DNA from: an uncultured Caldithrix sp.
Lineage (GTDB): Bacteria > Calditrichota > Calditrichia > Calditrichales > Calditrichaceae
Assembly: GCA_964468415.1 (NCBI GenBank)
Contig: CAYXUS010000246.1
Span: 1 to 21,391 of the forward strand
Length of the DNA stretch: 21,391 bases
Direction of reading: 5' to 3'
Made by a program: the position numbers and the translations under genes
Notes under the pieces: model-generated
What the model saw: the letters and a program-made list of their open reading frames with translations, nothing else
What the model was told of the DNA's origin: nothing
Databases searched by the model: none
In this document: one piece after another, positions 2,486-21,380 of the stretch
How the letters are laid out: the number at the start of each line of letters is the position of its first letter
How positions within the stretch are numbered: position 1 is the stretch's first letter

Positions 2486-3355
2486 ATGGAACTGAAGGAA
2501 GCGCTTTTAGAACTGATTCGCCGGGCGGCAACGGATCTTCCTCCCGATGTGGAAGCGGCGCTGCAAAAAGCGTACGAAAAGGAAGACGACAATACCCCGG
2601 CCAAAAACGTGTTTGCAACCATTTTGCAGAATGTGAAAATGGCACGCGAACAAAGTACCCCCATTTGTCAGGATACCGGCTCGCTGGTTTTTTACATCGA
2701 CTTTCCCGTGGGGCATGCCGAAAAAACCTACCGCGAAGCCATTGAATGGGCGGCTGTCGAAGCGACCAATCGACAATATTTGCGCCCCAATGCCGTTGAT
2801 CCGGTCACCAATAAAAACAGCGGAAACAACCTCGGGGTTAACGCCCCTTACATTCACTTTCACCAGTGGGATAAAGACGAGGTGCGCATCCGCTTGCTTT
2901 TAAAGGGCGGCGGCAGCGAAAACGTAGGCTCGCAGTACAAATTGCCCCACGCGCCCATCAAAGCGGGACGCGATCTTGAAGGCGTGCGCAAAGTTATCAT
3001 TGATGCCGTGACCAACGCGCAAGGTTTGGGCTGCGCACCCGGAACCATTGGCGTGGGCATTGGCGGCGGGCGTGATACCTCGTACGCACTTTCCAAGGAG
3101 CAGTTTTTCAGAAAAATGGGACAGCGCAGCGAAAACAAAGAACTGGCCGAGCTGGAACTGCGCCTGTTAGACGAACTGAATCGTCTGAACATCGGTCCCA
3201 TGGGCTTTGGCGGAAAAACCACGGTACTGGATGTGTTTATTGCCGCGCAGGCCCGCCACCCGGCGACTTTTTACGTTTCCGTTTCGTACAACTGCTGGGC
3301 CTACCGCAGAAAAATGTTGACCATTAAAAACGGCGAGGTGGAATATGACGATTAA
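2486..3355 (+). CDS. Class I (Fe-S) fumarate hydratase / L(+)-tartrate dehydratase alpha subunit (FumA/TtdA N-terminal catalytic domain type)
   Basis: 289 aa with the conserved Fe-S hydro-lyase alpha-subunit pattern (PICQDTGS..., GGGSEN, GIGGG). AGGAGA SD 8 nt upstream. The stop overlaps the next ORF's start. Confidence 0.85.
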   Translation: MELKEALLELIRRAATDLPPDVEAALQKAYEKEDDNTPAKNVFATILQNVKMAREQSTPICQDTGSLVFYIDFPVGHAEKTYREAIEWAAVEATNRQYLRPNAVDPVTNKNSGNNLGVNAPYIHFHQWDKDEVRIRLLLKGGGSENVGSQYKLPHAPIKAGRDLEGVRKVIIDAVTNAQGLGCAPGTIGVGIGGGRDTSYALSKEQFFRKMGQRSENKELAELELRLLDELNRLNIGPMGFGGKTTVLDVFIAAQARHPATFYVSVSYNCWAYRRKMLTIKNGEVEYDD

Positions 3356-3932
3356 ATTGAAAACTCCGATTTCGGAAGAAGAAATCCGAAAATTGCACAT
3401 CGGTGACACGGTGCTTCTTTCCGGTGTCATCGTCACCGCCCGCGATCAGGCGCATAAATTGATGATCGAAGAACGTCCGGATTTCATCCGCAAATACTTG
3501 AAAGAATCGGTGATTTACCACTGCGGTCCGGTGGTACGCCAAAATCCGGACGGCACCTGGAAATTTGTGGCCGCCGGTCCCACCACTTCCGCTCGCGAGG
3601 AACCGTATCAGGCCGAGGTGATCAAGGAATATCAGGTGCGCGGCGTCATCGGCAAAGGTGGCATGGGGCCCAAAACGCTGGAGGGCCTGCAAAAGTACGG
3701 CGCCGTGTATTTCCACGCCGTGGGCGGGGCCGGAACGCTAATCGCCAATGCCGTCAAGCGCGTCATCGACGTTTTTAAGCTGGAAGAATTCGGTACACCC
3801 GAGGCTTTTTGGGTAATCGAAGTGGAAGATTTTCCCTTGGTGGTCACCATGGATTCGCACGGCAACAGCATGCACAAAGAAATTCTGGAACAATCGAAAG
3901 CCAAGGCCGAAGAACTGATGGGCCTGAAATAA
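3345..3932 (+). CDS. Class I fumarate hydratase / tartrate dehydratase beta subunit (FumA C-terminal domain type)
   Basis: 195 aa. GKGGMGPKT...AVGGAG is typical of the beta subunit. Its start ATG lies inside the ATGACGATTAA overlap with the alpha stop (translational coupling). GAGGTGG SD. Confidence 0.85.
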   Translation: MTIKLKTPISEEEIRKLHIGDTVLLSGVIVTARDQAHKLMIEERPDFIRKYLKESVIYHCGPVVRQNPDGTWKFVAAGPTTSAREEPYQAEVIKEYQVRGVIGKGGMGPKTLEGLQKYGAVYFHAVGGAGTLIANAVKRVIDVFKLEEFGTPEAFWVIEVEDFPLVVTMDSHGNSMHKEILEQSKAKAEELMGLK

Positions 3933-4040: not shown

Positions 4041-5435
4041 ATGCGCAAGGAAAAAGACGCTCTGGGCGAAGTTTTCGTACCGGATGACAAATATTACGGG
4101 GCACAAACCCAACGGGCACTAAAAAATTTTATGGTGGGCAGTGAACGGTTTCCGCCGGAATTCATTCGTGCCCATGCCATCGTAAAAAAGGCGGCCGCAC
4201 GGGTAAATGCCGCTCTGGGCGAGCTAAACGTACCCATCGCCCGCGCCATCGAACAAGCCGCGGATGAGGTGATAACCGGTAAGCTAAACGATCACTTTCC
4301 GCTGGTCATCTGGCAGAGCGGCAGTGGCACGCAATTTAACATGAATGTCAATGAGGTAATCGCCAACCGGGCCAGTGAAATTTTGGGCGGACGTCCGGGT
4401 GCCAAGTCGCCCGTGCATCCCAACGATCACGTAAACATGGCACAATCCACAAACGACACGTTTTCCACCTCCATGCACATCGCTTCTGTTCTGGCGTTAA
4501 AGGAAAAACTGCACGGTGCGCTGGTCGCCTTCGAAAAAGCCTTGCAGAGCAAAGCGGAACAGTTCAAAGACATCATTAAAATCGGCCGGACCCATTTGCA
4601 GGACGCCACACCGCTTACGTTGGGGCAGGAATTTTCCGGTTATGCCGCGCAAATACATGCGGCACACGAAGTCATTCGCGGTGTACTACCCCTTTTGAGC
4701 GAATTGCCGATCGGCGGCACGGCAGTAGGTACGGGGTTAAACACCAAAACCGGTTTCGATGAAATGATGGTGGCGGAAATCACACGTCTTACCGGCCACA
4801 CGTTTAAAGTGGCGCGTAACAAATTTGCCGGTTTGGCCGCACACGATGCCCTGGTGGCGCTCTCCGGCGCTTTAAAAACGCTGGCTGCGGCGCTGATGAA
4901 AATTGCCAACGACATCCGCTGGTCGGCCAGTGGCCCGCGCAGTGGCCTGGGCGAAATTATTTTACCGGCCAACGAACCGGGTAGCTCCGTTATGCCCGGA
5001 AAAATAAATCCCACGCAAAGCGAAATGCTCACGCAGGTGGTTTGTCAGGTGTACGGCAACGATACTACGATTTCCATGGCCGGTTCACAGGGTAACTTTG
5101 AGCTGAACGTGTTTAAGCCGGTTATTATTTTTAATGTGCTGCAATCCGTTACGTTGTTGGCCGAGGCCATGAATTCGTTTCGCGAAAAGGCGCTTGAGGG
5201 GCTTGTGCCGCATGTTAGAAACATGGAACACCATCTAAAAAATTCGCTGATGCTGGTAACCGCATTGAACAAACACATCGGTTACGACAAAGCGGCGGAA
5301 ATTGCTTTAAAAGCCTGGCAGGAGGACAAAACGCTCAAGGAAGCGGCTGTGGAATCGGGCTATGTGAGCGAGGATCAGTTTGACCAATGGGTAAAACCGG
5401 GAAAAATGATCGGGCCGGAAGAGAGGACAGAATAG
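4041..5435 (+). CDS. fumC: Class II fumarate hydratase (fumarase C)
   Basis: 464 aa. It carries the fumarase/aspartase-superfamily signature GSSVMPGKINPTQSEML (FumC-type, not the AspA-type PAKVNP) and a C-terminal half closely matching the E. coli FumC pattern. AAGGAG SD. Confidence 0.9.
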   Translation: MRKEKDALGEVFVPDDKYYGAQTQRALKNFMVGSERFPPEFIRAHAIVKKAAARVNAALGELNVPIARAIEQAADEVITGKLNDHFPLVIWQSGSGTQFNMNVNEVIANRASEILGGRPGAKSPVHPNDHVNMAQSTNDTFSTSMHIASVLALKEKLHGALVAFEKALQSKAEQFKDIIKIGRTHLQDATPLTLGQEFSGYAAQIHAAHEVIRGVLPLLSELPIGGTAVGTGLNTKTGFDEMMVAEITRLTGHTFKVARNKFAGLAAHDALVALSGALKTLAAALMKIANDIRWSASGPRSGLGEIILPANEPGSSVMPGKINPTQSEMLTQVVCQVYGNDTTISMAGSQGNFELNVFKPVIIFNVLQSVTLLAEAMNSFREKALEGLVPHVRNMEHHLKNSLMLVTALNKHIGYDKAAEIALKAWQEDKTLKEAAVESGYVSEDQFDQWVKPGKMIGPEERTE

Positions 5436-6012: not shown

Positions 6013-9000
6013 TTACCCGTTTTCGCCGGTAAGACGGGCAATCTGCAAAATGTAAAAGCGCAATTGCTCCTGTTCTGCGGATGAAAGGGGCTGTTGCTCA
6101 ATTTTAACAATACGCTCCACATCACGCAAAGCACGCATTACATTTACCGGTAACTCCCCCGCTGCCTGTGCCTGATGATTCAAATAGTGCATGGCGGCCA
6201 GTAGAAATTGTTTTAGATTGTCGTCCGTAACATTGCGCAGCCCCGAATGAAGCTGGCTCAAAACCCGTTGATCCGTGCTTTGAAACGGAATCCCGTTTGC
6301 CGCCTGATTTTTTAAAAGCACCTCAATAGCCTGACTTAGTTGAACAAAACTTTCTACCTGCCCGGCGACTTTTTCTCCGATCAACTGCCAGATTTCCTTT
6401 CGCCAGTGGCGCACCTTTACGGGAATACGCAACAAATGCTCGGTTTGCCGAAGCCAGGCTTCGTCCGGAGTTAATGTAGTATCCTTTCTGCCAAGTAAAA
6501 CATCGGGCTCGGTATTAAAGAGATTCTCTTGTAAAAGAACCGCCAAATCGGGACGCAAGGTCGGCAAAAGTTCGCTGCGGAACGCCCCGTTTTCAAAGAA
6601 GTCACCGACGGGCAACCCGTGTCTCCTGACTAATTCGACCTGGAAAAGCGGGATGAATTCGTGCATTAATTTCGTGTCTTCGTGCAGGGCAAAAAGGGCG
6701 CTATTGCCGGCCGGGAACAGCGGTTCCAGATTTCGAAAATGCTCCAGATCCACATCCTGATACAAACGGAGCGTGTTCAAAATTTCGTACACGGGCAAAT
6801 AGGGCAAAATACGTTCTTGCAGTGCAAATTGTTGCGGCATCACACTTTGCTGGTCGTTGGCAAATTCTTTTAAGGCCCGGAACAGTCCGGTCGTTAACTG
6901 ATTGATCCCCAAAATCATTGTCTGGGCCCGGTTGTGCCCAATAGCGCGCAATAACGTACCGTGTTTGGAAAGCGGGAGCACTCGGGTGAGACGCTCTACT
7001 ACCTTCTGCCCCACATCCGCCTGCGAAACATTGCCCGGGCGAATTGTCGGACGATCTCTAAACGAGGGGGTCATGCGCGAAACAAAATAGGAGACAATGT
7101 GGATGCCCACCACATCTTCATCTCGCCCGTACACAATTTGGCGAAAGTTTTCGGAGGCAATCTGCAGAAATTTGTCGTACATGGGGTCCGACCAACCCAG
7201 TGTCAGACGCCGTAATTCCTTTTCCCCTTTTTCGTGATATTGCAGGCGTGTGGAAATGAGCGGTTCACCGGCATGGAGCAACTCCTGATCGTGGTACTGC
7301 TGCTGAAGTTTTACATGGTACAGAGTGTTGGCTCGCTCGCTTGCCGGCAACATGCGCAGTTTTTCCGAAATCGTACTTTGAAAGGTTCGCAGGTCGCCAC
7401 TGCTAAACACTCCACGTAAAGGGGTAATCGCAAATTCCGCGCTTTTGGCGGCTGGCGGAAGTAACAATTGGTTTAGCTGCTGCTTGTTTCTGTGGTTTAA
7501 CAGGAACGCAGGGGTGCTGCCTATTGCGTCGTAAAACCCGCCCTGGCGTTGCATGGGTTCTCCGCTTCCCAATTTCAACCGCACCTTCCCCAACAACCCC
7601 TTTTGTGCCAGCCATTTGACCACTTTAAACTTGGTTTCTTTGTACAATTGGGCGGCAAGGGCCTGCCCTACCTGCTGGCTTAAATCGGAACCAGCTACAA
7701 ATATTTCGCAGAGCATCTGGCTAAAACGTTCCTCCGGCGACTGGGATGTGGCCCGGTGACTTTGCACGTAGTTCCACAATTCGTTCAGATAGGTCTCAAT
7801 GCGCTTGACGACGTCATAATCTTCAAAAAGAGGGATGACCCAAATGTCGGGGAGAGCTGTCCTGGGCGAACGACGCAATACGGCTTCTTTGCGAGCACGT
7901 AATTTTTGCTCCAGGCGGATCAACGCTTCGGTTTTGCTGGTCATGCTGACCTGCAGGGCCAGAATGAGGCCGGCGTTACCGACATCTCCGCCCAGTTCGT
8001 TAATCTCGGTCAGGTTGAATACTGTGGTGTCAATGGCAAAGGGATCGACCGAGGTAATCATGTTTTGATGAATGCGCGGTGTTAACACAAATCGTTTGAG
8101 TAAATCACGGTAAAATCCTACCCGAAAAAGTAATTCGGGATTATCGGAATGCTTGAGGATGGCCGGAATGGAAGCGTGCAATGCCTTGCGTAATTTTTTG
8201 TTCAAAAGGAAATATTCTTCCAGCCCTTTTCGCCGCTGATTGCGGAGCTGACGCATTTTTCGTTCGAGGCGGTCGTTGTGCGTCCAAAGGGCCGTTAACG
8301 GATCTTGAGCGATGCCTAATTTCATTCCCAGGCTGCGCCAAAAACCGGGCCGTGTTTGCGCCGGAAGTAAACTACGATAGCGTTTTTCCAGTTGGTTGGT
8401 AAGTGCGGTAATTTCGTTTAGTACTTTCCAGAATTTTTCCCGACGTCGCGGGAGTTCCTGAAGGGCCGTGCGTAGTTCCGGGTCTAAGTCCAAATCGTTC
8501 TCCAGAGAGAGAAGCAATGTCAAAATGTTTGCCAAACGGCTTACGTTTTCGATAACAACAGCCCCAACCAAACGGTGGCCCTGACCGGAAGGCCGTGTGC
8601 TGCCGTCCCAGTCTCCCCAAAAGGAGAGAAAGGCGGGTACTTGTTCTCCTTGTAATTCGGCCAGAATTTCTGCCTCGACAAAGGCGTTTAGGTCCTGAAG
8701 AAGCTCGTCAGCTTCTTGCACGGAATTAATGGGCACCGTCTCGCCAAAAAACTCGGCAACTAATTCTCGAGCCAGCTTTTCCAGTACCCCGGGCGATGGC
8801 CGATGCCCCCGGAGAATGGTTTGCATGAGGTTGGCCGCCTGAATATCCACGGAAAGCGCATACATTTGTGTGGGATGAACCGTGCGATCCAAAATGCGTT
8901 TGCGGAAACGCTGCTGCCGCGAGGCCAAATTGTCTTTGTAAAATTCGCGTTGCAACAACTCTTGCAAATAGGCATTGCGCTGTTTCTGCTCCATGAATCG

Positions 9001-11646
9001 CAATGCCTGCCAAATGGCTAATTTGTCGTTAAACTGACGCATAAAACCGGCAAGTCGGTTGCGTAGATGCTCTTCGACAAATGCGGTACGCTGGTCGGGA
9101 GTAGCAAAAGGCTTGCGCGTGCGATCGAAGTGCTGGCAGGCCAGGTGTTGAACGGTTTCAACCGTTTTTTCCCAGACGGAGAGTTGTTGGTTTGCGTAAG
9201 TCATCCAGCGGCCGGAAGACAGCGGCGGCATGGTCTTCTTTTGGACGGCCGACGCTTCCTGAGCGGTTAATCGGTTTAAACCGATTAAAACCCGCCGCAT
9301 CTGGTAATAAAGCTGCTCGTCACTCACACTACCACCTAAGGTCAGCCGAAATGCATTACGCGCAATTTGGTAGCCTTGGGCGGTACGGGCAAAGGTCGTA
9401 AGAGGAACCAGCCCGATGCCCTGATTGGCCAGATTCGATGACAGCGTTTCCTGTGAAATACCGGCCGGCAAACGCTTAATAAACAGCAACGGGTACATGC
9501 TGCCCGCCGGCGTCTGCAGCGTTCCCAGAAAAGGATTGCGCTCCTCAGGCAATTCCTGTTCTGCCTTTTTCAACCAGCTCATTCTCCGGGCAAACAATCG
9601 ATTACGAAAATCCCAGTAGTTTTCTACTTTCTCGCGTCCATTCCGATAAAATAAATACGCAATAAGCAACGGCAACCGATGATCCCGTACGAATTTTAAT
9701 CTCTCAAGGAAAAGCGTGCGCACATCGGCTTCAGGAATTTCTACCACCGTCAGTCGCGCCCCGGCAAAACTATCGGTCTTGGAAAGCGAATGAATGGTAA
9801 TAAGCTTCTCCGCATCTTTTCCGGCTATGTATCCGGTACGTACCAGTTGAGTGACAAGTTGCTTAAGCGTTTTTATCCGTCGGGAAGACTGCCAGGGGCC
9901 AACATTTTGATACGATAAATCATCAATCACTCGAACCCCTTGCCGTAAGGCCCAGTGCAAAATGGAAAGCAATTCTTCTTCCGGCAAAATGCGCCCCGTT
10001 GCATTATGCGGGTTGTTGAAAACAATGGCACCATTTTCGCGCCATGAGCTATCTCGCAATAAGAGAGCCTCCATTTGCTCAATAAAATGTTTTGCCGAGA
10101 ATGTGTGGAGTGGGCTCAAAGGGAGAGTTTCCACGTGAGGGAAACAATGTTCATACGTCCAACTCAAATCCAGCGTAGCAACTTTTTTAATAGGGCCGAA
10201 ATGGCCTAATAAGCCCAATGCCGTTCGTGCCGAACCGCTAACCACTGCACACGCCTCTCGTTCGTACTCAGGATGGAGGGCAAGAAAAACCTCTAAAAAA
10301 TTTTCCTTTAGCTCCCTGATGAAGGTTTTATCATCCAAACGGTCAAAAAATCGATCAATTAATTCAAATGATGAAAAAGAAGAAAACGAATCGTCCGCAA
10401 CCCTTTCACCCTCAAAAGAACGGCTTCCATGCTCTCCTTTTTGCCGAGCAAAATTCTGCCATTTTTCGGCAATACCCTGGACCTTTTGCGCATTTCTTGC
10501 CATTTGTCGAGTAAAAGAAGCCGCGATTTCTTCGGCCCGGCGAACGGTTAAAAGTGCGCTGCTTCCCGTAAAACGATCTGTTTGGCGCTGAAGCTCACTC
10601 TCGATGTTCTCATCAATTCCGTCTTTGTTAACCTGGAATGCACGTTTTTTCATCTCCTGACTCAGGGCAAAATGCAGCAGCTCGGCTTCCGGTGCAGATG
10701 GTGTGCCTTTCAGCTCGAAATGCACCGTTTCCAAGTGTTGAATGTAATCGGCCCGGCCCATGACCAAAACAATGGAATGGCCTTTTAGCCCGGGATTAAT
10801 CGCCTCCGGAGTAAGAAAGCGAAGCACACGATCCGCCAAAAGAGTCTCACGGGCCAACGAAAAATGGTTGGGCGCATTATTTACTTCCACAACAAATAAC
10901 GGATAAGCTAAAACCAATTCCCGCAAATGCCGCCGAAATTTTTCAGACGGTACTGCACCAAGAAAAACAAAATGCGGCTGATGCACCTCTGTTTTCTGGA
11001 ATTCCGCTTGCAAAGCGGCAAGCGCATGTTCCTCGTCATTGGGCAACACATGCTTCTCGGTTTGCTCCAATTCAAACAAAAAATTTGGCAAGGAAACATT
11101 AAAAAGCCAAACAACCGCAGGCCGGACACGTAACGCGCGATTTAACATGAACAAAAATACACGAATATTCTCTACAAGTCCGCCGCTGCCCAGCATCAAC
11201 TCTTTGTGCCCGGTCTGTTGGCCAATATCGTATTTTAACGGTTCAAGCTGTTCGTTCTCCAGCCAGTGGCGGATACGCTCTACCAAGGGCCCCGGGGAAC
11301 GCCGATTGTAGCCACCACGCGGCATGTAAGGATTGCACAAAGGTATTGCATCAAATACAAATTGTGCATTACGCCGTTGGATATCATTTGCAGAGACCGT
11401 GCCCAAAAAGCGTTGAAACGCTTCTTTGTCCTGAACAGTCTCCGGATCCGTTTGGAAAACCAATTGACGAAAAAGCGCCGTCAATCGGTTATCCTGTATC
11501 GGATGGCCAATATGAAAATTCACCCGCTCCTTATCGGGAACGGGTGCCATAGCCGTGGCCTCACTTATCTCCGAAACTTTAGCCGCTTTAAGCGGCTTTA
11601 AAGCAAAAAAATCTTCTTGCATTTTCTCTGCAAAGTTAATCCACAA
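6013..11646 (-). CDS. Giant (1877 aa) multidomain protein: tandem fold-type-I aminotransferase-like domains (about res 40-400 and 425-800) fused to a divergent PEP carboxylase-like domain (about res 800-1877)
   Basis: Uninterrupted 5.6-kb ORF. Domain 2 has the class-I aminotransferase motifs in the canonical order: Gly-rich VVSGSARTAL, NNPHNATG, DDLSY, SLSKTDSFAGARL (PLP Lys codon 9778-9780) and FRLTLGG. The C-terminal part has the PEPC motifs in native order and spacing: RTVHPTQ (H at 8875-8877), VIPLFEDYD, EIFVAGSDLSQQVG, RLKLGSGEPMQRQGG, LRAIGHNRAQ, and a C-terminal RLTGENG. The start is ambiguous: TTG at 11646 or ATG at 11622. Confidence 0.8.
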   Translation of the reverse strand: MWINFAEKMQEDFFALKPLKAAKVSEISEATAMAPVPDKERVNFHIGHPIQDNRLTALFRQLVFQTDPETVQDKEAFQRFLGTVSANDIQRRNAQFVFDAIPLCNPYMPRGGYNRRSPGPLVERIRHWLENEQLEPLKYDIGQQTGHKELMLGSGGLVENIRVFLFMLNRALRVRPAVVWLFNVSLPNFLFELEQTEKHVLPNDEEHALAALQAEFQKTEVHQPHFVFLGAVPSEKFRRHLRELVLAYPLFVVEVNNAPNHFSLARETLLADRVLRFLTPEAINPGLKGHSIVLVMGRADYIQHLETVHFELKGTPSAPEAELLHFALSQEMKKRAFQVNKDGIDENIESELQRQTDRFTGSSALLTVRRAEEIAASFTRQMARNAQKVQGIAEKWQNFARQKGEHGSRSFEGERVADDSFSSFSSFELIDRFFDRLDDKTFIRELKENFLEVFLALHPEYEREACAVVSGSARTALGLLGHFGPIKKVATLDLSWTYEHCFPHVETLPLSPLHTFSAKHFIEQMEALLLRDSSWRENGAIVFNNPHNATGRILPEEELLSILHWALRQGVRVIDDLSYQNVGPWQSSRRIKTLKQLVTQLVRTGYIAGKDAEKLITIHSLSKTDSFAGARLTVVEIPEADVRTLFLERLKFVRDHRLPLLIAYLFYRNGREKVENYWDFRNRLFARRMSWLKKAEQELPEERNPFLGTLQTPAGSMYPLLFIKRLPAGISQETLSSNLANQGIGLVPLTTFARTAQGYQIARNAFRLTLGGSVSDEQLYYQMRRVLIGLNRLTAQEASAVQKKTMPPLSSGRWMTYANQQLSVWEKTVETVQHLACQHFDRTRKPFATPDQRTAFVEEHLRNRLAGFMRQFNDKLAIWQALRFMEQKQRNAYLQELLQREFYKDNLASRQQRFRKRILDRTVHPTQMYALSVDIQAANLMQTILRGHRPSPGVLEKLARELVAEFFGETVPINSVQEADELLQDLNAFVEAEILAELQGEQVPAFLSFWGDWDGSTRPSGQGHRLVGAVVIENVSRLANILTLLLSLENDLDLDPELRTALQELPRRREKFWKVLNEITALTNQLEKRYRSLLPAQTRPGFWRSLGMKLGIAQDPLTALWTHNDRLERKMRQLRNQRRKGLEEYFLLNKKLRKALHASIPAILKHSDNPELLFRVGFYRDLLKRFVLTPRIHQNMITSVDPFAIDTTVFNLTEINELGGDVGNAGLILALQVSMTSKTEALIRLEQKLRARKEAVLRRSPRTALPDIWVIPLFEDYDVVKRIETYLNELWNYVQSHRATSQSPEERFSQMLCEIFVAGSDLSQQVGQALAAQLYKETKFKVVKWLAQKGLLGKVRLKLGSGEPMQRQGGFYDAIGSTPAFLLNHRNKQQLNQLLLPPAAKSAEFAITPLRGVFSSGDLRTFQSTISEKLRMLPASERANTLYHVKLQQQYHDQELLHAGEPLISTRLQYHEKGEKELRRLTLGWSDPMYDKFLQIASENFRQIVYGRDEDVVGIHIVSYFVSRMTPSFRDRPTIRPGNVSQADVGQKVVERLTRVLPLSKHGTLLRAIGHNRAQTMILGINQLTTGLFRALKEFANDQQSVMPQQFALQERILPYLPVYEILNTLRLYQDVDLEHFRNLEPLFPAGNSALFALHEDTKLMHEFIPLFQVELVRRHGLPVGDFFENGAFRSELLPTLRPDLAVLLQENLFNTEPDVLLGRKDTTLTPDEAWLRQTEHLLRIPVKVRHWRKEIWQLIGEKVAGQVESFVQLSQAIEVLLKNQAANGIPFQSTDQRVLSQLHSGLRNVTDDNLKQFLLAAMHYLNHQAQAAGELPVNVMRALRDVERIVKIEQQPLSSAEQEQLRFYILQIARLTGENG

Positions 11647-16216: not shown

Positions 16217-16543
16217 CTATTTTTCATCTTTTTCCGATAACACAAGCAACACCCGGCCTTCCTTTTCGCACACGGGATACGTTGGAATCTTTAAATTCGG
16301 ATTGCCGGTAAACGCACCGTCTTTTAATGCAAACCGCCAGCCATGATAAATGCAAACAATGTGGCCCTGCATCAGCACACCATCGCTTAACGGCGCTCCC
16401 TGATGCGGGCACCGATTGCGCATGGCGAAAAGTTTACTCCGGTGGCGAAAAATCACAATGGGCTGCCCGTCTACTTCCAAAGAAAAGGCCTGGCCCTCCC
16501 GGATCTCGCTACTCTTGGCAACAGCTATTTCACGAGATATCAC
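16217..16543 (-). CDS. Rieske [2Fe-2S] domain protein (NirD-like small subunit)
   Basis: CPHQG...CIYHGW Rieske ligand boxes. 4-bp ATGA overlap with the upstream MBL gene. Confidence 0.75.
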   Translation of the reverse strand: MISREIAVAKSSEIREGQAFSLEVDGQPIVIFRHRSKLFAMRNRCPHQGAPLSDGVLMQGHIVCIYHGWRFALKDGAFTGNPNLKIPTYPVCEKEGRVLLVLSEKDEK

Positions 16544-17382
16544 AGACGTACTTCTTCTCCAAGCTGAAAGCCTTTGTCCGTTTCCACCACGCGTCCGGCT
16601 ACTCGGAACGGATCGTGCTCGAATACCAGAATCCAGTTTTCTTGAACGGCCTGGGGCAGCAGGCGTTTTTTTTCTTCCAGAGTAATCAACGGATTGTTGT
16701 CATAGGCCATAATGTAAGGCAAAGGAATGTGTGAGGCCGTCGGCATTAAATCGGCACAATACAGCAACGTGCTTTGCTCATCATAAACTTTGACTAACTG
16801 CATGCCGTGAGTATGGCCGTACATCACTAAAACCTGAATCCCCGGGAACAATTCTTTGGGTCCCTCCAATTCTACCAGTTGCCCCGCTTCTTCGATGGGC
16901 TTAAAGTTTTCGGGCATGTAGCTGGCCCGGTCTTTTTCGCTGGGATGGTTCGCCCAATACCATTGTTCGCCCTGCACGTAATATTTGGCATTTGGGAACG
17001 TAGGCTGCAGCTTTCCATCCTTAACGGTGGTTGCTCCCCCTACATGGTCAAAATGCAGGTGAGTAATAATTACGTCGGTCACATCTTCTGGACGGATGCC
17101 GTACTTCAAGAGGTCTTTTTCAAGATCGTGTTTCGTTTGATCCACATTGTAAATTTTCTGCAGTTTTTCGTTCATCTTATGCCCCACTCCGGTATCGACG
17201 AGGATCAAACGACGCTCACTTTTAATCACCATCGTGCGCAACGCCAGTTGAATGCGATTCAGCTCATCCGCAGGGTTGGTTTTGCTCCACAATACCTTGG
17301 GTACCACCCCGAACATGGCTCCTCCGTCCAGCCAAACATAACCCGATTCGACGGTAAAAACTTCGTATTGACCTATCTGCAT
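16540..17382 (-). CDS. MBL-fold metallo-hydrolase
   Basis: THLHFDHVGG (HxHxDH) plus downstream His/Asp ligands. Confidence 0.8.
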   Translation of the reverse strand: MQIGQYEVFTVESGYVWLDGGAMFGVVPKVLWSKTNPADELNRIQLALRTMVIKSERRLILVDTGVGHKMNEKLQKIYNVDQTKHDLEKDLLKYGIRPEDVTDVIITHLHFDHVGGATTVKDGKLQPTFPNAKYYVQGEQWYWANHPSEKDRASYMPENFKPIEEAGQLVELEGPKELFPGIQVLVMYGHTHGMQLVKVYDEQSTLLYCADLMPTASHIPLPYIMAYDNNPLITLEEKKRLLPQAVQENWILVFEHDPFRVAGRVVETDKGFQLGEEVRL

Positions 17383-17453
17383 TCCGACCTCCGTTGTAAC
17401 TTTTTTCCAAATTCCAAATTTCTGCCGGGCCAGCCCGGTGTTAGAAAAATGGG

Positions 17454-18299
17454 CTAATATTTCAAGTGGCGGTCAAACCACGATTCGGTTAAATCTCTGG
17501 CAATATTGTACGCCTCGGTCCCGACCTCGAAAGGATGGCGCGTGCCAAAGGTGTGATCCGCATCTTCGATAATCTCCAACCGCTTGGAAAATGCTCCGCA
17601 ACGTTCGTAAAGCATTTCGCTCTCCGCAGCAGGGACCACGGCATCGGCCCCTCCGTGAATAAAAAGTGTCGGGGCTTCCAGTTCCTCAATACGATCTACC
17701 AAATTAAACTTCTTTTCATTGTCTTGCAAATCATCCACAAACGATTGGTTAATTCGAAAAGTCGCCTTTTTGCTCGCGTCGTCGAACTCTACAAAACCCT
17801 GTTCACGCAGCATTGCCAGTTGCTCTTCGCTTAAACGTCCGAAATGACTAACCGTAGCCCACGTAACCAATGCGCCAATTTCTTCCGGCATTTCCAGTGC
17901 CGAGAGAATGGCTATTCCGCCGCCACGACTGTGCCCCAAAAGTCCGATGCGCTCCGGATCGATAACCTGCTTGCCCACTTTCCCTTCGCGAATGGCCCGA
18001 ACCACGGCCTGCACGTCGGCCAACTCCTGCGAAATGGTATTGCGTGCAAATGCGTCCATCGCAGTAAAGTTCTTACCGTCCGGCCCAATACCATTTAACG
18101 AAAAATTCATTGCTAACGTAACGTAATCGCTACGTACCAAAGCCCGCGCCAGATCGGGGTAAAAGCCCCAATCTTTTGAGCCTAAAAAGCCGTGCAACAG
18201 GATGATGACCGGCGCCTGATTTGTCCCTTCCAGATAGCGTAAATCAAAATGTACCGGTTCGTTGTTTTGATTATTAATCGAAAGTAAACGGCGAATCAT
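17454..18299 (-). CDS. Alpha/beta-hydrolase (dienelactone hydrolase/esterase-like)
   Basis: Nucleophile elbow GHSRGG, with downstream Asp (GGADAVV) and His (DHTF) candidates for the triad. Confidence 0.8.
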   Translation of the reverse strand: MIRRLLSINNQNNEPVHFDLRYLEGTNQAPVIILLHGFLGSKDWGFYPDLARALVRSDYVTLAMNFSLNGIGPDGKNFTAMDAFARNTISQELADVQAVVRAIREGKVGKQVIDPERIGLLGHSRGGGIAILSALEMPEEIGALVTWATVSHFGRLSEEQLAMLREQGFVEFDDASKKATFRINQSFVDDLQDNEKKFNLVDRIEELEAPTLFIHGGADAVVPAAESEMLYERCGAFSKRLEIIEDADHTFGTRHPFEVGTEAYNIARDLTESWFDRHLKY

Positions 18300-18454
18300 G
18301 GTAATTCTCCAAAACCTCCTCTACATTAAACCAATCTTTCTTGAAAAATTGCGGTGATTGACTATTTACAACCTGAGTACTCGATTCGTAAGGAAAACTA
18401 ATTTGGGGATTTAAAAATTGCATAATCGAAAGAAGGAAAAAATGAATCATAATA

Positions 18455-18796
18455 TTAAAATTGCTTGACCAACCTTGCTAAATTCGAAACATCTTCGGAA
18501 GAAAAATGGGGAAACGCGGGCATTTCACCACGTCCATTAATGATAACTTGTGCGATTTGCTCTTCGGTGAGATTTGTTTTCTGCAAAGACGGATAGCCAT
18601 TTTGCCCCTGCCCCGTAGTTCCGTGGCACGAAGCGCAATTGTGTGCATACAAAACCGTGGCAGAGCGCACACCGCTTTGCCTGGTTTGCCCTTTCCCAAC
18701 TCTTTTGTACGGATCATTCGATCCTAAAAAGGCGGCAATAATCACCAATGCGGCTGCCATAAAAACCGCAAAAACAATAAGCGGCTTATTTTCCAT
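18455..18796 (-). CDS. Membrane-anchored or periplasmic class I c-type cytochrome (mono-heme)
   Basis: N-terminal hydrophobic anchor, CASCH heme-binding motif, distal Met in GEMPAF. Confidence 0.8.
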   Translation of the reverse strand: MENKPLIVFAVFMAAALVIIAAFLGSNDPYKRVGKGQTRQSGVRSATVLYAHNCASCHGTTGQGQNGYPSLQKTNLTEEQIAQVIINGRGEMPAFPHFSSEDVSNLARLVKQF

Positions 18797-18995: not shown

Positions 18996-19979
18996 ATGAA
19001 ACGCAGAAAATTTTTGAAAAGCAGCGCCCTAATAAGTGTTGGAACCTGGCTTCCTGCTTCTTTCTTTTCGCTGCCGATGGTTTCCGTTGCTTCCGGGAAG
19101 AAATCCCGTGTGGTCATTGCCCGTGATCCTTCTGTTTTTAACAACAATCGCTTGAATAGCAGAAAAGTTACCGATCTGCTGGACAATGCCATTCAAGCCT
19201 ACTTTAATGTGGATCATCCTTTACACGGCTGGCAGAAAATCGTCCATCCCGGCGAAGTCATTGGCGTTAAAGTGAACTGCCTTTCGGGGCGAGGTTCCAC
19301 CCACAAAGAACTGGTCGATGCGGTCGTCGAACGCTTGCGCCAAGCCGGTATTAAAGCACGTAACATCATCATTTGGGACCGGCTGAACAAAGACCTGGAA
19401 GAAGCAGGGTACCGGATTCGCTACAAAGGCAAAGGCCCACTGGTCTTCGGCAACGACGCCGTGGGATTCGATCCTGAGTTGCAAGTATTCGGCCAGGCTG
19501 GTAGTCTGGTAACACGCATCATGACCCACCTGTGTGACGGGATCATTAATCTGGCGCTCCTTCGGGATCACAGTATTGCCGGCGTGTCCATTTCTCTCAA
19601 GAACCTGTTCGGAGCCATCCACAATCCCAACAAATACCATCTCAATGTCGGCGATCCTTACATTCCCGATGTGAACGCCTTCCCGGTTATTCGTCGGAAG
19701 GTGCGCTTTACCATTGTCGATGCGCTCGAAGCCCAATATCACGGAGGGCCGGCTTACATGCCCCAATGGCGCTGGCCGTATGCCGGTTTGCTCGTCGGAC
19801 AAGACCGGGTTGCAATTGACTACACAGGATGGCACATCATCGAAGAAAAACGAAGGGCAATGGGATTACCTCCACTAAAAGACGAAAACCGAGAGCCCCG
19901 ATACATTTTCACAGCCAGTGACTCGGATCATTTGTTGGGTAACAGCAATCCCAGGCTTATCGAAAAAATCATGGTGTAA
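18996..19979 (+). CDS. DUF362 domain protein with twin-arginine (Tat) signal peptide
   Basis: N-terminus KRRKFLK + hydrophobic region + VSVA. The core matches DUF362 patterns (VIGVKVN..., LKNLFG..., IVDALEAQYHGGP). Confidence 0.7.
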   Translation: MKRRKFLKSSALISVGTWLPASFFSLPMVSVASGKKSRVVIARDPSVFNNNRLNSRKVTDLLDNAIQAYFNVDHPLHGWQKIVHPGEVIGVKVNCLSGRGSTHKELVDAVVERLRQAGIKARNIIIWDRLNKDLEEAGYRIRYKGKGPLVFGNDAVGFDPELQVFGQAGSLVTRIMTHLCDGIINLALLRDHSIAGVSISLKNLFGAIHNPNKYHLNVGDPYIPDVNAFPVIRRKVRFTIVDALEAQYHGGPAYMPQWRWPYAGLLVGQDRVAIDYTGWHIIEEKRRAMGLPPLKDENREPRYIFTASDSDHLLGNSNPRLIEKIMV

Positions 19980-19997
19980 TTCGGCAAAGGTAAAAAC

Positions 19998-21189
19998 GAT
20001 GAAAGAACAAACCATTTTAATCGACCAATGGCCGGGACAAGAGCGAAAGAAATCATTCGGTGTAAGCCGACGAACCTTTCTAAAACTTGCCTCTTCCGCC
20101 GGGATTCTCCTGGGCCTTCCGGGCATAAATTGGTCGGAGGGGCGCGCTTTGCTGGCTGCGACCGGAAATGATGAGCGGTTTGTACGCGAGGCCCGTTATT
20201 GGGAAAAGAAGGCCCACAAACAAGTTCACTGCCAGCTGTGTCCCCGCGGATGCGTGGTGGACGACCACGAGCGGGGCTACTGCGGAGTTCGGGAGAACCG
20301 CGGGGGAACTTATTACACATTGGTTTATTCCCGGGCAGCCACCTACCATATTGATCCCATTGAAAAGAAGCCGTTGTTTCACTTTCTCCCCGGGAGCATG
20401 GCTTTTTCCATCGCCACAGCCGGTTGCAATCTGAATTGTAAATTTTGCCAGAATTGGCAAATTTCGCAGGTCACGCCGGAGCAGGTCGATAGCTACTACC
20501 TGCCGCCGCAAAAACTGGCGACGCTGGCCCGTGAATACAAAACAAAATCGATTGCCTACACTTACAACGAGCCCACGATTTTCTACGAATACATGTACGA
20601 CACAGCCGTGGCCGCCCAAGAACAAAGCGTAAAAAGCGTAGTCATTACAGCCGCTTACATCGAACACGATCCCATTGCCGAACTGTGCCAGGTAGTGGAT
20701 GCCATAAAGGTAGATTTAAAAGCGTTTTCGGAAAAATATTACAAAGACATTGTCCACGGCGAATTAAAACCTGTGTTGCAAGCCCTGGAAACAATTCGTA
20801 AGCAGGACACGTGGTTGGAAATTGTGTATCTGGTTGTGCCTACGCTAAACGACAGTGAAGCGGAAATCAAAAAACTTTCGCGCTGGATTAAACGCTATCT
20901 CGGCCCGGATGTACCCATCCATTTTACCCGTTTTTTCCCGCAATATTTATTAAAAAACCTGCCCCCTACTCCCGTAGCAACGCTCGACCGCTGTAAAGCC
21001 ATCGCCGATGCCGAGGGCTTGCATTATGTGTATGTGGGCAACGTACCGGGCCATCCCGCGGAAAATACGTACTGCCCCCATTGCGGAAAGCCTTTGGTTG
21101 AGCGCATTGGCTTTACGATAAAAAGCATGCACATTACCAATGGGAAATGCCCTTATTGCGGGACAAAAATTCCGGGTATTTGGAAGTAA
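19998..21189 (+). CDS. AmmeMemoRadiSam-type radical SAM enzyme (PFL-activase-like) with a Tat-like N-terminal signal
   Basis: HCQLCPRGC...GYCGVREN N-terminal Cys box, then AGCNLNCKFCQNW (Cx3Cx2C radical SAM cluster) and PIEKKPLFHF. The N-terminus has SRRTFLK plus a hydrophobic stretch. I prefer the start at 19998 (AAAGG 8 nt upstream) over the ORF-track 19918, which would overlap the DUF362 gene by 62 nt. Confidence 0.85.
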
Positions 21190-21353
21190 CTTCCACAAAA
21201 CAGGGTTGACAATCACTCCCGGTACCCGTAAAGCCGTAAGCAGGCGCGGCAAATTTCTCCTGATAAAATTGCTTTGGCCTTCGGCCTGCCTTTGTGGTGG
21301 CAGAACCTGCCGATGCTCTAAACCAGCGAAGCCTGCTCCTTAAAATAAAAAAA

Positions 21354-21380
21354 GCCTCAATTGAACATTGAGGCTTTTCG
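21354..21380. terminator. Intrinsic terminator hairpin GCCTCAAT-loop-ATTGAGGC, flanked by an A-run and a T-run (bidirectional)
   Basis: Seen directly. 8-bp stem, AAAAAAA upstream and TTTTCG downstream. Confidence 0.5.

Follow-up and report, generated by a model that had tools for sequence, protein, structure and literature searches.

The locus described here raises the question of whether radical SAM chemistry can take place outside the cytoplasm. This chemistry requires SAM and a reductant near -450 mV. To our knowledge all characterised radical SAM enzymes work in the cytoplasm owing to their need for SAM and a very low-potential electron donor, and we know of no periplasmic SAM pool. In a 21,391-nucleotide stretch of DNA from an uncultured Caldithrix sp. 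(contig CAYXUS010000246.1; the whole stretch is called the window), a DUF362 gene (ORF A) and an AmmeMemoRadiSam-type radical SAM gene (ORF B) form a two-gene operon. From the gene structure, motifs, conservation, neighbourhoods, domain fusions and fold we infer export and topology, the supply of electrons and SAM and the role of DUF362. Both proteins are probably exported by Tat as subunits of an AmmeMemoRadiSam variant that works outside the cytoplasm.

ORF A encodes a protein that opens MKRRKFLKSSALISVGTWLPASFFSLPMVSVASGKK and matches Pfam DUF362 (PF04015) over residues 90-278 with 58.6 bits (cutoff 24). The longest reading of ORF B runs from GTG 19918; homologues support a start at ATG 19999, 19 nt past the DUF362 stop, which gives a protein that opens MKEQTILIDQWPGQERKKSFGVSRRTFLKLASSAGILLGLPGINWSEG. 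This protein scored 77 bits against Pfam Radical_SAM and 391.7 bits against TIGR04337 (cutoff 220) with a match over residues 65-395. All 33 aligned radical SAM homologues matched TIGR04337, a family that is itself labelled a 'hypothetical equivalog'. In the AF2 model of the radical SAM protein the pLDDT was below 50 at residues 1-22 and 37-56, a helix spanned residues 24-38 and the folded core began at about residue 58, such that the first 57 residues of the model lie outside the core. Judging from its sequence, the hairpin downstream of ORF B is likely a bidirectional terminator that ends the two-gene operon. A promoter scan of the intergenic region gave no signal above background.

Table 1. 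Features of the window discussed in the text.
Feature	Coordinates	Strand	Remarks
c-type cytochrome, membrane-anchored, divergent	18455..18796	-	Cytochrome_CBB3 58.8 bits
DUF362 gene (ORF A), LarA-like fold, predicted Tat-type signal	18996..19979	+	327 aa
DUF362 predicted signal: KRRKFLK (residues 2-8) plus uncharged h/c-region (residues 9-34, ending VSVA/SG)	18999..19097	+	RR kept in 113/120 homologues
DUF362 motif H192-SIAGVSISL-K202-NLFGAI-H209-NPNKY-H215	19569..19640	+	residues invariant in 34 homologues
AmmeMemoRadiSam-type radical SAM gene (ORF B)	19999..21189	+	396 aa; predicted N-terminal targeting extension of 57-64 residues
n-region motif I-D-Q-W-P (residues 8-12) of radical SAM protein	20020..20034	+	I-D-x-[LIVW]-P in 70/114 homologues
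Radical SAM protein, predicted Tat motif SRRTFLK (residues 23-29) plus h-region LASSAGILLGLPGINWS (residues 30-46)	20065..20136	+	17 uncharged residues after motif
N-terminal Cys cluster C78-x2-C81-x3-C85-x9-C95, putative auxiliary metal/Fe-S site	20230..20283	+	invariant, 33 homologues
Radical SAM cluster motif C143-x3-C147-x2-C150 (CNLNCKFC)	20425..20448	+	invariant in homologue alignment (33 homologues)
C-terminal CxxC...CxxC (C359, C362, C384, C387), zinc-ribbon-like	21073..21159	+	invariant; weak zinc-ribbon Pfam matches
13-bp hairpin with flanking A/T runs	21349..21379		hairpin in sequence; likely bidirectional terminator

The earlier note had reported that both ORFs begin with a twin-arginine motif and a hydrophobic stretch, and this was borne out: KRRKFLK and SRRTFLK are present at the positions in Table 1, in keeping with the Tat consensus S/T-R-R-x-F-L-K, and both are conserved. 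The x-R-R-x-F-L-K motif was kept in 114 of 120 radical SAM homologues and 113 of 120 DUF362 homologues drawn from more than 10 phyla, and the family logos read x-R-R-x-F-[LI]-K. In ORF A the start MKRRKFLK is followed by 26 uncharged residues; across homologues the median length of this stretch was 17 residues in the radical SAM proteins and 14 in the DUF362 proteins. Residues 14-33 of the DUF362 protein are disordered in its AF2 model. The conservation is that of signals, with RRxFLK and hydrophobic character retained and the flanking sequence variable. RRx[FL][LIVMF][KRQ] followed by 13 uncharged residues near the N-terminus was then sought more widely: among the 33 ORFs of 100 aa or more in the window only A and B matched, and the 84 related loci gave just 3 matches in 2655 other ORFs, a chance rate of about 0.1% per ORF. 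The TIGR01409 TAT_signal model matched the radical SAM protein (17.4 bits, cutoff 16.7) and 20 of the 33 aligned homologues; no match to the DUF362 signal was reported at E <= 0.01. Precomputed PF10518 matches were present on a few radical SAM homologues.

These data bear on the reading that translation of the radical SAM protein really begins downstream of the RR pair, which would leave the motif untranslated or fortuitous. Several in-frame starts are available, including GTG 19918 and ATG 19999, and a strong Shine-Dalgarno sequence is not evident. Against this, the extension is conserved in frame in the same 114 of 120 homologues, which share 62-83% identity, and persists in genome loci at identities as low as 45%; the 396-aa product was also returned by independent gene callers (P0001), and the motif rarely arises by chance. 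As all homologues translate the RR pair and it precedes every conserved part of the enzyme, the later start considered in the earlier note did not hold up, and we regard an annotation artefact as highly improbable.

Among the radical SAM N-termini of 84 genome loci (more than 10 phyla) 69 were of the RR type, 3 had KR, 8 were otherwise hydrophobic, 2 had no signal and 2 were unclear. A hidden frameshifted signal in the signal-less radical SAM genes of loci L081 and L062 was rejected owing to stop codons upstream. In some relatives the non-RR hydrophobic N-termini look Sec-like, which would entail export of an unfolded Fe-S protein and is difficult to square with cluster assembly.

Conserved RR pairs and hydrophobic stretches could also serve ends other than export. 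They might be 'remnant' Tat-like sequences, as in NarG-type proteins, or cytoplasmic-face membrane tethers. Their role would then be to recruit a proofreading chaperone or to keep the enzymes at the membrane, and the chemistry would remain in the cytoplasm, which provides SAM and low-potential reductants. In 70 of the 114 radical SAM homologues I-D-x-[LIVW]-P stands at a fixed spacing from the RR pair, mostly 11-14 residues before it, and in most homologues cysteines occupy fixed positions within the h-region. This is more constraint than a plain signal needs, and a chaperone-binding or membrane-tether role fits it too. Moreover, an N-extension is lacking in 91 of the 150 nearest clusters; these are canonical family members and presumably cytoplasmic. 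Other features of the N-termini speak for export. By inspection, the flank charges of most non-RR N-termini predict an N-in/C-out orientation. In 40 of 113 DUF362 homologues a cysteine lies at one fixed position about 24 residues past the RR pair (a broad lipobox-like pattern was found in 21 of the 113), an arrangement that would make sense as a lipoprotein signal only where the outer face gives access to the site.

The partner proteins bear on the same question. Although no Memo or AMMECR1 gene was found inside the window, a Memo-AMMECR1 fusion (L084 19573-21072) appeared once the search was carried further along the same contig; it lies downstream, just past the window and 8.4 kb from the radical SAM gene, with scores of 278.6 bits for TIGR04336 and 184 bits for TIGR04335. 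Its signal in the source organism is of the lipoprotein type (MIRKTIFHVLIGGIWAMVLFTGAC/ESE), and the signals of Memo-AMMECR1 proteins are of the ordinary Sec or lipoprotein kind, with AxA or Cys sites (an example from elsewhere is MKKAIILLAPILLLSQNEAMA/SK), which argues against a purely cytoplasmic system. Memo-AMMECR1 adjoins the radical SAM gene in 38 of the 84 related loci, often together with DUF362. Hence, the earlier note was mistaken in placing DUF362 where AMMECR1 or MEMO1 usually stands: DUF362 is an extra component, the added fourth partner of what is, by its sequences, a bona fide AmmeMemoRadiSam system. The same contig also encodes a fused MFS/spermidine synthase (L084 15296-17407). 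A 645-aa OMP-like gene between this gene and Memo-AMMECR1 was discarded as a partner because it is not conserved in other loci, and no NapH-like or FMN_bind electron conduit gene was found on the 32-kb contig.

A neighbourhood survey, which the earlier note had proposed for DUF362 and TIGR04337-like radical SAM genes, found the pairing to be recurrent. DUF362 lies immediately upstream of the radical SAM gene in 45 of 63 RR-type loci versus none of 10 non-RR loci (Fisher p = 4.6e-5, with loci counted without correction for phylogeny), and the two genes usually lie within about 25 nt of one another or overlap. Further recurrent neighbours are the fused MFS/spermidine synthase (46 loci), DUF6599 (17 loci) and NapH plus NapG-like or NosR-like polyferredoxins (15 loci).

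Such tight coupling, together with the restriction of DUF362 to RR-type radical SAM genes, would also fit a self-contained maturase and its substrate, in which a PFL-activase-like radical SAM enzyme modifies DUF362 in the cytoplasm (by a cross-link, radical or cofactor) prior to export of both proteins, with Memo and AMMECR1 as incidental neighbours. Loci L001, L002 and L087 (Calditrichota and Latescibacterota) have no Memo-AMMECR1 within 10 kb, as this reading would allow, and by HMM the glycyl-radical activases are the nearest characterised relatives of the radical SAM protein, all below cutoffs. We rejected identity with these activases, since the PFLA score was 60.8 bits against a cutoff of 231.75 (TIGR02493) and the other activase models also fell far short. 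The pairing with DUF362 is not obligatory: it is missing from 21 of 66 RR/KR-type loci (18 of the 63 RR-type) and from Memo-AMMECR1-rSAM triple fusions, whereas the same radical SAM clade adjoins Memo-AMMECR1 in the 38 loci noted above and the window's own contig encodes that fusion. In addition, a radical SAM enzyme that acted in the cytoplasm would have no need of a conserved export signal of its own. We therefore find the maturase-substrate reading quite doubtful.

Domain fusions, surveyed in the 50%-identity clusters nearest to the radical SAM protein, gave further evidence on topology. P0265 and P0279 have a single TM segment, then FMN_bind and then the radical SAM domain, with no TM segment between the two domains; FMN_bind domains are extracytosolic and are flavinylated by ApbE (PMC8238504). 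P0255 and P0252 are signal-CBM11-rSAM and signal-beta-propeller-rSAM fusions, and in P0310 a Sec signal is followed by Memo-AMMECR1 and then the radical SAM domain. In these fusions the radical SAM core follows a single N-terminal TM segment or signal and shares a side of the membrane with FMN_bind, CBM11 and the beta-propeller. P0263, P0264 and P0269 are NosR-type fusions with FMN_bind, NapH-like Fer4_5, an extra TM segment and then the radical SAM domain, for which the side of the membrane is not fixed by our crude TM count. Given the Sec and lipoprotein signals of the partners and the fusions to extracytosolic domains, the alternative that the RR pairs serve folding quality control only, raised in the earlier note, is disfavoured, and we consider cytoplasmic chemistry behind non-export N-termini unlikely. 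In sequence terms, signals, partner proteins and domain fusions agree on periplasmic targeting. The most likely reading is thus the one first proposed, a periplasmic or membrane-associated redox module, with export as predicted from these three lines.

A c-type cytochrome gene is indeed divergently adjacent to the operon, as had been stated. Its synteny is limited to Calditrichota (L001, L087 and L088) and it was absent from the loci of other phyla; hence, we rejected it as a conserved core partner, and it is probably a neighbour only.

DUF362 had been described as a putative Fe-S/redox domain; the Fe-S part does not apply here. The alignment of 34 homologues has a single invariant cysteine (C95) and no ferredoxin domain, and the protein has a LarA-like fold. 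LarA cofactor and catalytic residues are R75, H108, H174, K184 and H200 (PMC11770544). The DUF362 H192-x9-K202 spacing, H-x2-A-G-x-S-x3-K, is that of LarA H174...K184 in 5HUQ, and thus at the level of sequence the LarA-fold DUF362 protein retains the catalytic-His/cofactor-Lys motif of LarA. These equivalences come from motif spacing and manual alignment, using LarA segments fetched from the PDB with approximate LarA motifs. By such alignment DUF362 differs from LarA in having no His at the His108 position (IIIWDRLNK) and a semi-conserved residue at that of Arg75, and the His200 counterpart may be H209 or H215. Sequence identity is 11-18%, and the LarA C-terminal domain is absent from DUF362. 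A Pfam search of ORF A gave no match to LarA_N (PF09861). PDB searches with the profile of 34 DUF362 sequences (no chain at E <= 10) and with the DUF362 sequence returned nothing, the peptide query likewise missing LarA. We did not assign the protein to LarA. The LarA-like pocket may carry a cofactor.

The preferred reading, Tat export of both proteins, suggests the following scheme. The radical SAM enzyme would gain its [4Fe-4S] cluster or clusters in the cytoplasm, and the RRxFLK signals would guide both proteins, once folded, to the Tat translocase. After crossing they would come to lie at the outer face of the inner membrane, with the signal either cut off or its helix left as a tether. 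In about one-third of homologues, those with a Cys at the signal end, DUF362 may have a lipid anchor. The Memo-AMMECR1 fusion, exported unfolded via Sec as a protein or lipoprotein, would meet the Tat-exported pair, and jointly the proteins would modify a substrate in the envelope or periplasm by a radical-initiated reaction. To cleave SAM, related organisms could bring electrons across the membrane via NapGH/NosR-like polyferredoxins and extracytosolic covalent-FMN domains, the latter acting as flavodoxin analogues. SAM might be loaded before export, which would allow a single turnover, or be delivered via the co-localised fused MFS/spermidine-synthase membrane protein. DUF362 most likely would bind a nucleotide-derived cofactor or the substrate as a partner enzyme specific to Tat-type systems. 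The full proposal is that a widespread AmmeMemoRadiSam clade, exported with its clusters, reduced through such conduits, supplied with SAM by either route and accompanied by a LarA-like DUF362 perhaps having an organometallic or nucleotide cofactor, performs radical SAM chemistry outside the cytoplasm; we hold this to be evenly poised. The Tat-type clade is found in Calditrichota, Acidobacteriota, Planctomycetota (including anammox bacteria), Thermodesulfobacteriota, Omnitrophota and other phyla.

If true, periplasmic targeting of so broad a clade would break the cytoplasm-only rule for radical SAM enzymes and provide the first extracytoplasmic example. Memo and AMMECR1 are disease-linked and conserved as far as humans; their function would then have to involve a substrate present in the cell envelope as well. 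The role of these two proteins, the provision of SAM and low-potential electrons beyond the cell membrane and the ligand of DUF362, a sister family of the nickel-pincer LarA enzymes, would become questions open to test. Experiments are feasible because the cultured type strain Caldithrix abyssi LF13 has the same two-gene locus.

The earlier note considered a Tat-targeted radical SAM enzyme unusual, and our literature searches, which found no precedent, support this view: the open-access literature yielded nothing on exported, periplasmic or Tat radical SAM enzymes, nothing on TIGR0433x and only passing mentions of AmmeMemoRadiSam, with no characterised member. Burroughs et al. reportedly catalogued Memo gene contexts in 2019 (JBC 294:10211), and that catalogue may already cover part of the present contexts. 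Radical SAM maturases of exported proteins (anSME, QhpD and PqqE) share with the present system the genetic coupling to periplasmic proteins. Both they and PFL-AE lack a signal peptide and work in the cytoplasm; among solved structures, PFL-AE (8fo0/3c8f, E ~1e-4) is the closest to the radical SAM protein. Tat-exported Fe-S proteins such as NapG, hydrogenase small subunits and Rieske proteins have in common with it a twin-arginine signal on a cofactor-loaded Fe-S protein; we know of none that is a radical SAM enzyme or depends on a diffusible cytoplasmic co-substrate like SAM. Flavinylated conduits of the NapH/NosR type deliver electrons at the outer face, where NapH-like proteins feed extracytosolic reductases, and NapH-like and FMN_bind proteins are neighbours or fusions among the radical SAM relatives; the flavinylation survey itself (PMC8238504) does not mention radical SAM, Memo, AMMECR1 or DUF362 proteins. 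Relative to LarA and the DUF2088 nickel-pincer-nucleotide racemases (Pfam clan CL0471), DUF362 is distinguished by its predicted export. The canonical AmmeMemoRadiSam system (TIGR04335 AMMECR1, TIGR04336 Memo and TIGR04337 radical SAM) has a predicted function only, such as base modification (PMC2034487), and for the Tat-type clade a site outside the cytoplasm speaks against a cytoplasmic nucleic acid as the substrate. The two share the TIGR04337 core, Memo and AMMECR1 partners above the TIGR04336 and TIGR04335 cutoffs, and the CX3CX2C, N-terminal CX2CX3CX9C and C-terminal Cys pairs. They differ in that the canonical radical SAM protein has no N-terminal extension whereas that described here has a predicted Tat signal, that Memo and AMMECR1 are here fused and carry a Sec or lipoprotein signal, and that the clade as a whole adds DUF362, the fused MFS/spermidine synthase and NapGH/NosR-like conduits.

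The DUF362 and radical SAM (rSAM) genes are co-directional in our ORF reading of the region, with 19 nt between the DUF362 stop codon and the rSAM ATG, and the rSAM gene ends 202 nt before the window does. The usual automatic names are 'DUF362 domain-containing protein', in keeping with a PF04015 match of 58.6 bits (cutoff 24), and 'AmmeMemoRadiSam system radical SAM enzyme', in keeping with a TIGR04337 match of 391.7 bits (cutoff 220) over residues 65-395. Synteny with the divergent cytochrome c gene and the hydrolase, metallo-beta-lactamase and Rieske genes behind it is confined to Calditrichota. The 67-aa ORF overlapping the rSAM gene gave no family match and is probably spurious. Elsewhere in the window, a giant ORF shows just one recognisable domain, at residues 484-778, with the fold of class I/II aminotransferases, and has large orthologues in other Calditrichota (L001, 1299 aa; L087, 1856 aa), and the two adjoining fumarases are apparently redundant.

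Positions of the features discussed (window coordinates unless a locus is named; L numbers denote related genomic loci, L084 being the window's own contig)
Feature	Position	Strand	Remarks
ORF A, DUF362 protein	18996-19979	+	327 aa, N-terminus MKRRKFLKSSALISVGTWLPASFFSLPMVSVASGKK
ORF B, rSAM	ATG 19999 (start)	+	396 aa, N-terminus MKEQTILIDQWPGQERKKSFGVSRRTFLKLASSAGILLGLPGINWSEG...
I-D-x-[LIVW]-P motif	20020-20034		rSAM n-region
13-bp hairpin	21349-21379		downstream of the ORF A/ORF B pair
Membrane-anchored cytochrome c, alpha/beta hydrolase, metallo-beta-lactamase-fold protein, small Rieske ferredoxin	16217-18796	-	block kept in Calditrichota loci L001, L087, L088
67-aa ORF	21140-21343	+	overlaps rSAM gene 3' end; gene call in public assemblies (L084 11142-11345)
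Giant ORF	6013-11646	-	1877 aa
Class I (Fe-S) fumarate hydratase	2486-3355, 3345-3932	+	two subunits
Class II fumarase C	4041-5435	+	adjoins class I enzyme
Partner gene cluster	L084 15296-21072	-	three genes, 4-10 kb past window 3' end
Fused MFS/spermidine synthase	L003 12688-15087; L029 9132-11264; L084 15296-17407		700-840 aa; also in 43 other loci
rSAM with CxxCH haem-c segment	L059 7743-9029; L075 7998-9275		between Tat signal and rSAM core
rSAM without N-terminal signal and adjoining Memo-AMMECR1	L081 3663-6374		Nitrospiraceae; stop codons upstream of rSAM

The earlier note had read twin-arginine (RR) N-termini in both adjacent ORFs, and this reading held. The 33 window ORFs that reach 100 aa were scanned for RRx[FL][LIVMF][KRQ] followed by at least 13 uncharged residues; 2 matched, solely DUF362 and rSAM, and the same pattern occurred in 3 of 2655 unrelated ORFs of related loci. 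The rSAM N-terminus also scored 17.4 bits against TIGR01409, TAT_signal (cutoff 16.7). For either protein we compared the 120 best homologues (identity 62-83% for rSAM, 51-76% for DUF362); the motif was kept in 114 and 113, respectively, the six and seven others being N-terminally truncated gene calls. The consensus is x-R-R-x-F-[LI]-K with a median uncharged stretch of 17 (rSAM) or 14 (DUF362) residues after it, and the n- and h-region sequences vary. We surveyed 84 loci from Calditrichota, Acidobacteriota, Aminicenantes, Latescibacterota, Zixibacteria, KSB1, Planctomycetota (including Scalindua and Brocadiaceae), Thermodesulfobacteriota, Verrucomicrobiota, Lentisphaerota, Omnitrophota, Elusimicrobiota and others: 69 rSAM N-termini carried an RR signal, 3 a KR variant and 8 another hydrophobic type (mostly Omnitrophota and Elusimicrobiota), 2 were signal-less and 2, truncated at or near a contig end, were unclear.

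The start codon could be misplaced: the longest reading of ORF B begins at GTG 19918, upstream of the ATG shared by homologues, and the earlier note had allowed for a true start downstream of the RR motif. Such a downstream start does not hold, the extension being kept in homologues, and we regard a start-codon artefact as exceedingly improbable. In the AF2 model, residues 1-57 lie outside the folded core. Within the n-region, I-D-x-[LIVW]-P occurs in 70 of 114 homologues, mostly 11-14 residues before RR, and might serve to bind a chaperone or partner. In most rSAM homologues, but not in the window protein, the h-region contains one or two Cys whose places are fixed, at +4/5 and +8/9 from RRxFLK (as in LPCLAACAG), too early for a usual lipobox. 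Haem c is attached solely outside the cytoplasm, yet c-type cytochromes are normally Sec-routed. The rSAM homologues with a haem-c segment (Anaerolineales and Latescibacterota) carry LDCTACH and RCLSCH.

The earlier note also had DUF362 in place of AMMECR1 or MEMO1, which does not stand. L084 (32.5 kb) continues past the window 3' end through an Mla-like ABC transporter cluster to opposite-strand genes, among them a Memo-AMMECR1 fusion (TIGR04336, 278.6 bits; TIGR04335, 184 bits) with a lipoprotein-type signal, MIRKTIFHVLIGGIWAMVLFTGAC. Between the transporter cluster and this fusion lie first a fused MFS/spermidine-synthase membrane protein (NF037959, 68 bits) and then a 645-aa protein with a Sec signal, a weak HhH match and an OMP-like C-terminus (...QLTF); the other 83 loci hold no counterpart of the 645-aa protein. 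In the survey of DUF362 beside TIGR04337-like rSAM genes that the earlier note had suggested, DUF362 lay directly upstream in 48 of 84 loci and a Memo-AMMECR1 fusion adjoined rSAM in 38; nearby were the fused MFS/spermidine synthase (46, second in frequency to DUF362), DUF6599 (17), NapH+NapG-like or NosR-like polyferredoxins (15) and a second DUF362 paralogue (13). In Acidobacteriota the usual order is DUF362-rSAM-MemoAMMECR1; in Planctomycetota it is MemoAMMECR1-DUF362-rSAM. DUF362 accompanied 45 of 63 RR-type rSAM genes versus 0 of 10 that lack RR (Fisher p = 4.6e-5, with no correction for phylogeny). A DUF362-maturase pair unconnected with Memo/AMMECR1 would have this association on its side and the 38 adjoining fusions against it, and seems to us quite improbable. 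Given the gene content across the 84 loci, DUF362 is no stand-in for Memo or AMMECR1; it is a fourth component alongside rSAM, Memo and AMMECR1.

From four independent observations on protein sequences and gene contexts, we infer that the whole system is probably extracytoplasmic. The Memo-AMMECR1 partners (38 loci) begin with conventional signals of the Sec or lipoprotein type, which have AxA or Cys sites. In 40 of 113 DUF362 homologues a Cys stands at one fixed site about 24 residues past RR, where a lipoprotein signal would put it (broad lipobox-like pattern in 21 of 113). The NapGH/NosR-like neighbour in L014 has an internal QRRKVLTGLAAGAAVVPLL ahead of its NapG-like half and that in L062 an FMN_bind domain; NapH/NosR-type conduits supply extracytosolic reductases with electrons, and FMN_bind domains, which ApbE flavinylates, lie outside the cytosol (PMC8238504). 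L084 (32 kb) itself holds no electron conduit gene. An exhaustive representative search with rSAM gave 1547 clusters at E <= 1e-30; of the nearest 150, 31 were RR/KR forms, 7 were of another hydrophobic type, 9 were long N-terminal fusions and 91 were canonical and lacked an extension, with targeted forms concentrated in the closest 50. Fused rSAM cores of the clade lie behind an N-terminal TM or signal (P0262 among them): single TM-FMN_bind-rSAM with no TM between (P0265, P0279); FMN_bind, NapH-like Fer4_5, extra TM and rSAM (P0263, P0264, P0269); signal-CBM11-rSAM (P0255); signal-beta-propeller-rSAM (P0252); Sec signal, Memo-AMMECR1 and rSAM (P0310); and DsbD_2-rSAM (P0256, P0260). In the cell, radical SAM enzymes are usually reduced by flavodoxin-type FMN, and therefore the fused covalent-FMN domain is a plausible periplasmic stand-in for flavodoxin.

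Points against export, or not explained by it, are the lack of a conduit gene on L084, the I-D-x-[LIVW]-P motif and the fixed h-region Cys; Sec-like rSAM variants, too, would need Fe-S clusters after unfolded export. The RR N-termini might be cytoplasmic 'remnant' signals or tethers, a reading that we hold unlikely beside the fusions and partner signals. In L081, the signal-less rSAM stands beside a Memo-AMMECR1 with a lipoprotein-like N-terminus, a mixed case that matches neither an all-cytoplasmic nor an all-exported picture.

Burroughs et al. 2019 reportedly extended the known Memo gene contexts. In the open-access literature, which leaves that paper uncovered, we found no description of Tat-targeted or periplasmic radical SAM enzymes and no DUF362 link; a flavinylation survey (PMC8238504) likewise mentions neither. 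We rate the system as known but uncharacterised and its Tat-targeted form with DUF362 as new, subject to Burroughs et al. 2019; the finding would be of high interest if export is confirmed.

With operon structure, motifs, conservation, neighbourhoods, fusions and fold as observed, DUF362 and rSAM would fold in the cytoplasm, where rSAM would take up its Fe-S clusters, and would then be Tat-exported in folded form. On the outer side of the inner membrane they may work together with the Memo-AMMECR1 lipoprotein, itself exported by Sec, and electrons would arrive via NapGH/NosR/FMN conduits in organisms having such genes. SAM would be pre-bound or supplied through the MFS/spermidine synthase protein. 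As its C-terminal loops have K+R counts of about 4, 0, 5, 0 and 3 (14 homologues examined), its spermidine-synthase-like (SAM/dcSAM-binding-fold) domain is tentatively, by this crude prediction, placed outside. For the canonical AmmeMemoRadiSam system cytoplasmic RNA-base modification was proposed (PMC2034487), against which an envelope location would argue, at least for this clade.

The earlier note's putative Fe-S role for DUF362 finds no site, since the subfamily (61% mean column identity) has one invariant Cys only; its invariants are K92, N94, C95, D191, H192, K202, H209, N210, P211, K213, H215, D225, D242 and Q247. The comparison is with LarA (5HUQ), where ESH174FFAGFSGGRK184...NH200 was set beside RDH192SIAGVSISLK202NLFGAIH209NPNKYH215 in the window protein and HSIAGLSGGLK in orthologues of L040 and L043. 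Membership in LarA was rejected, the R75 and H108 positions not being conserved as Arg and His. The two agree in the A-G-x-S core and in the distance from the catalytic His to the cofactor Lys; DUF362 is LarA-like in fold and part of the pocket, and Tat export would make sense if a complex cofactor were bound.
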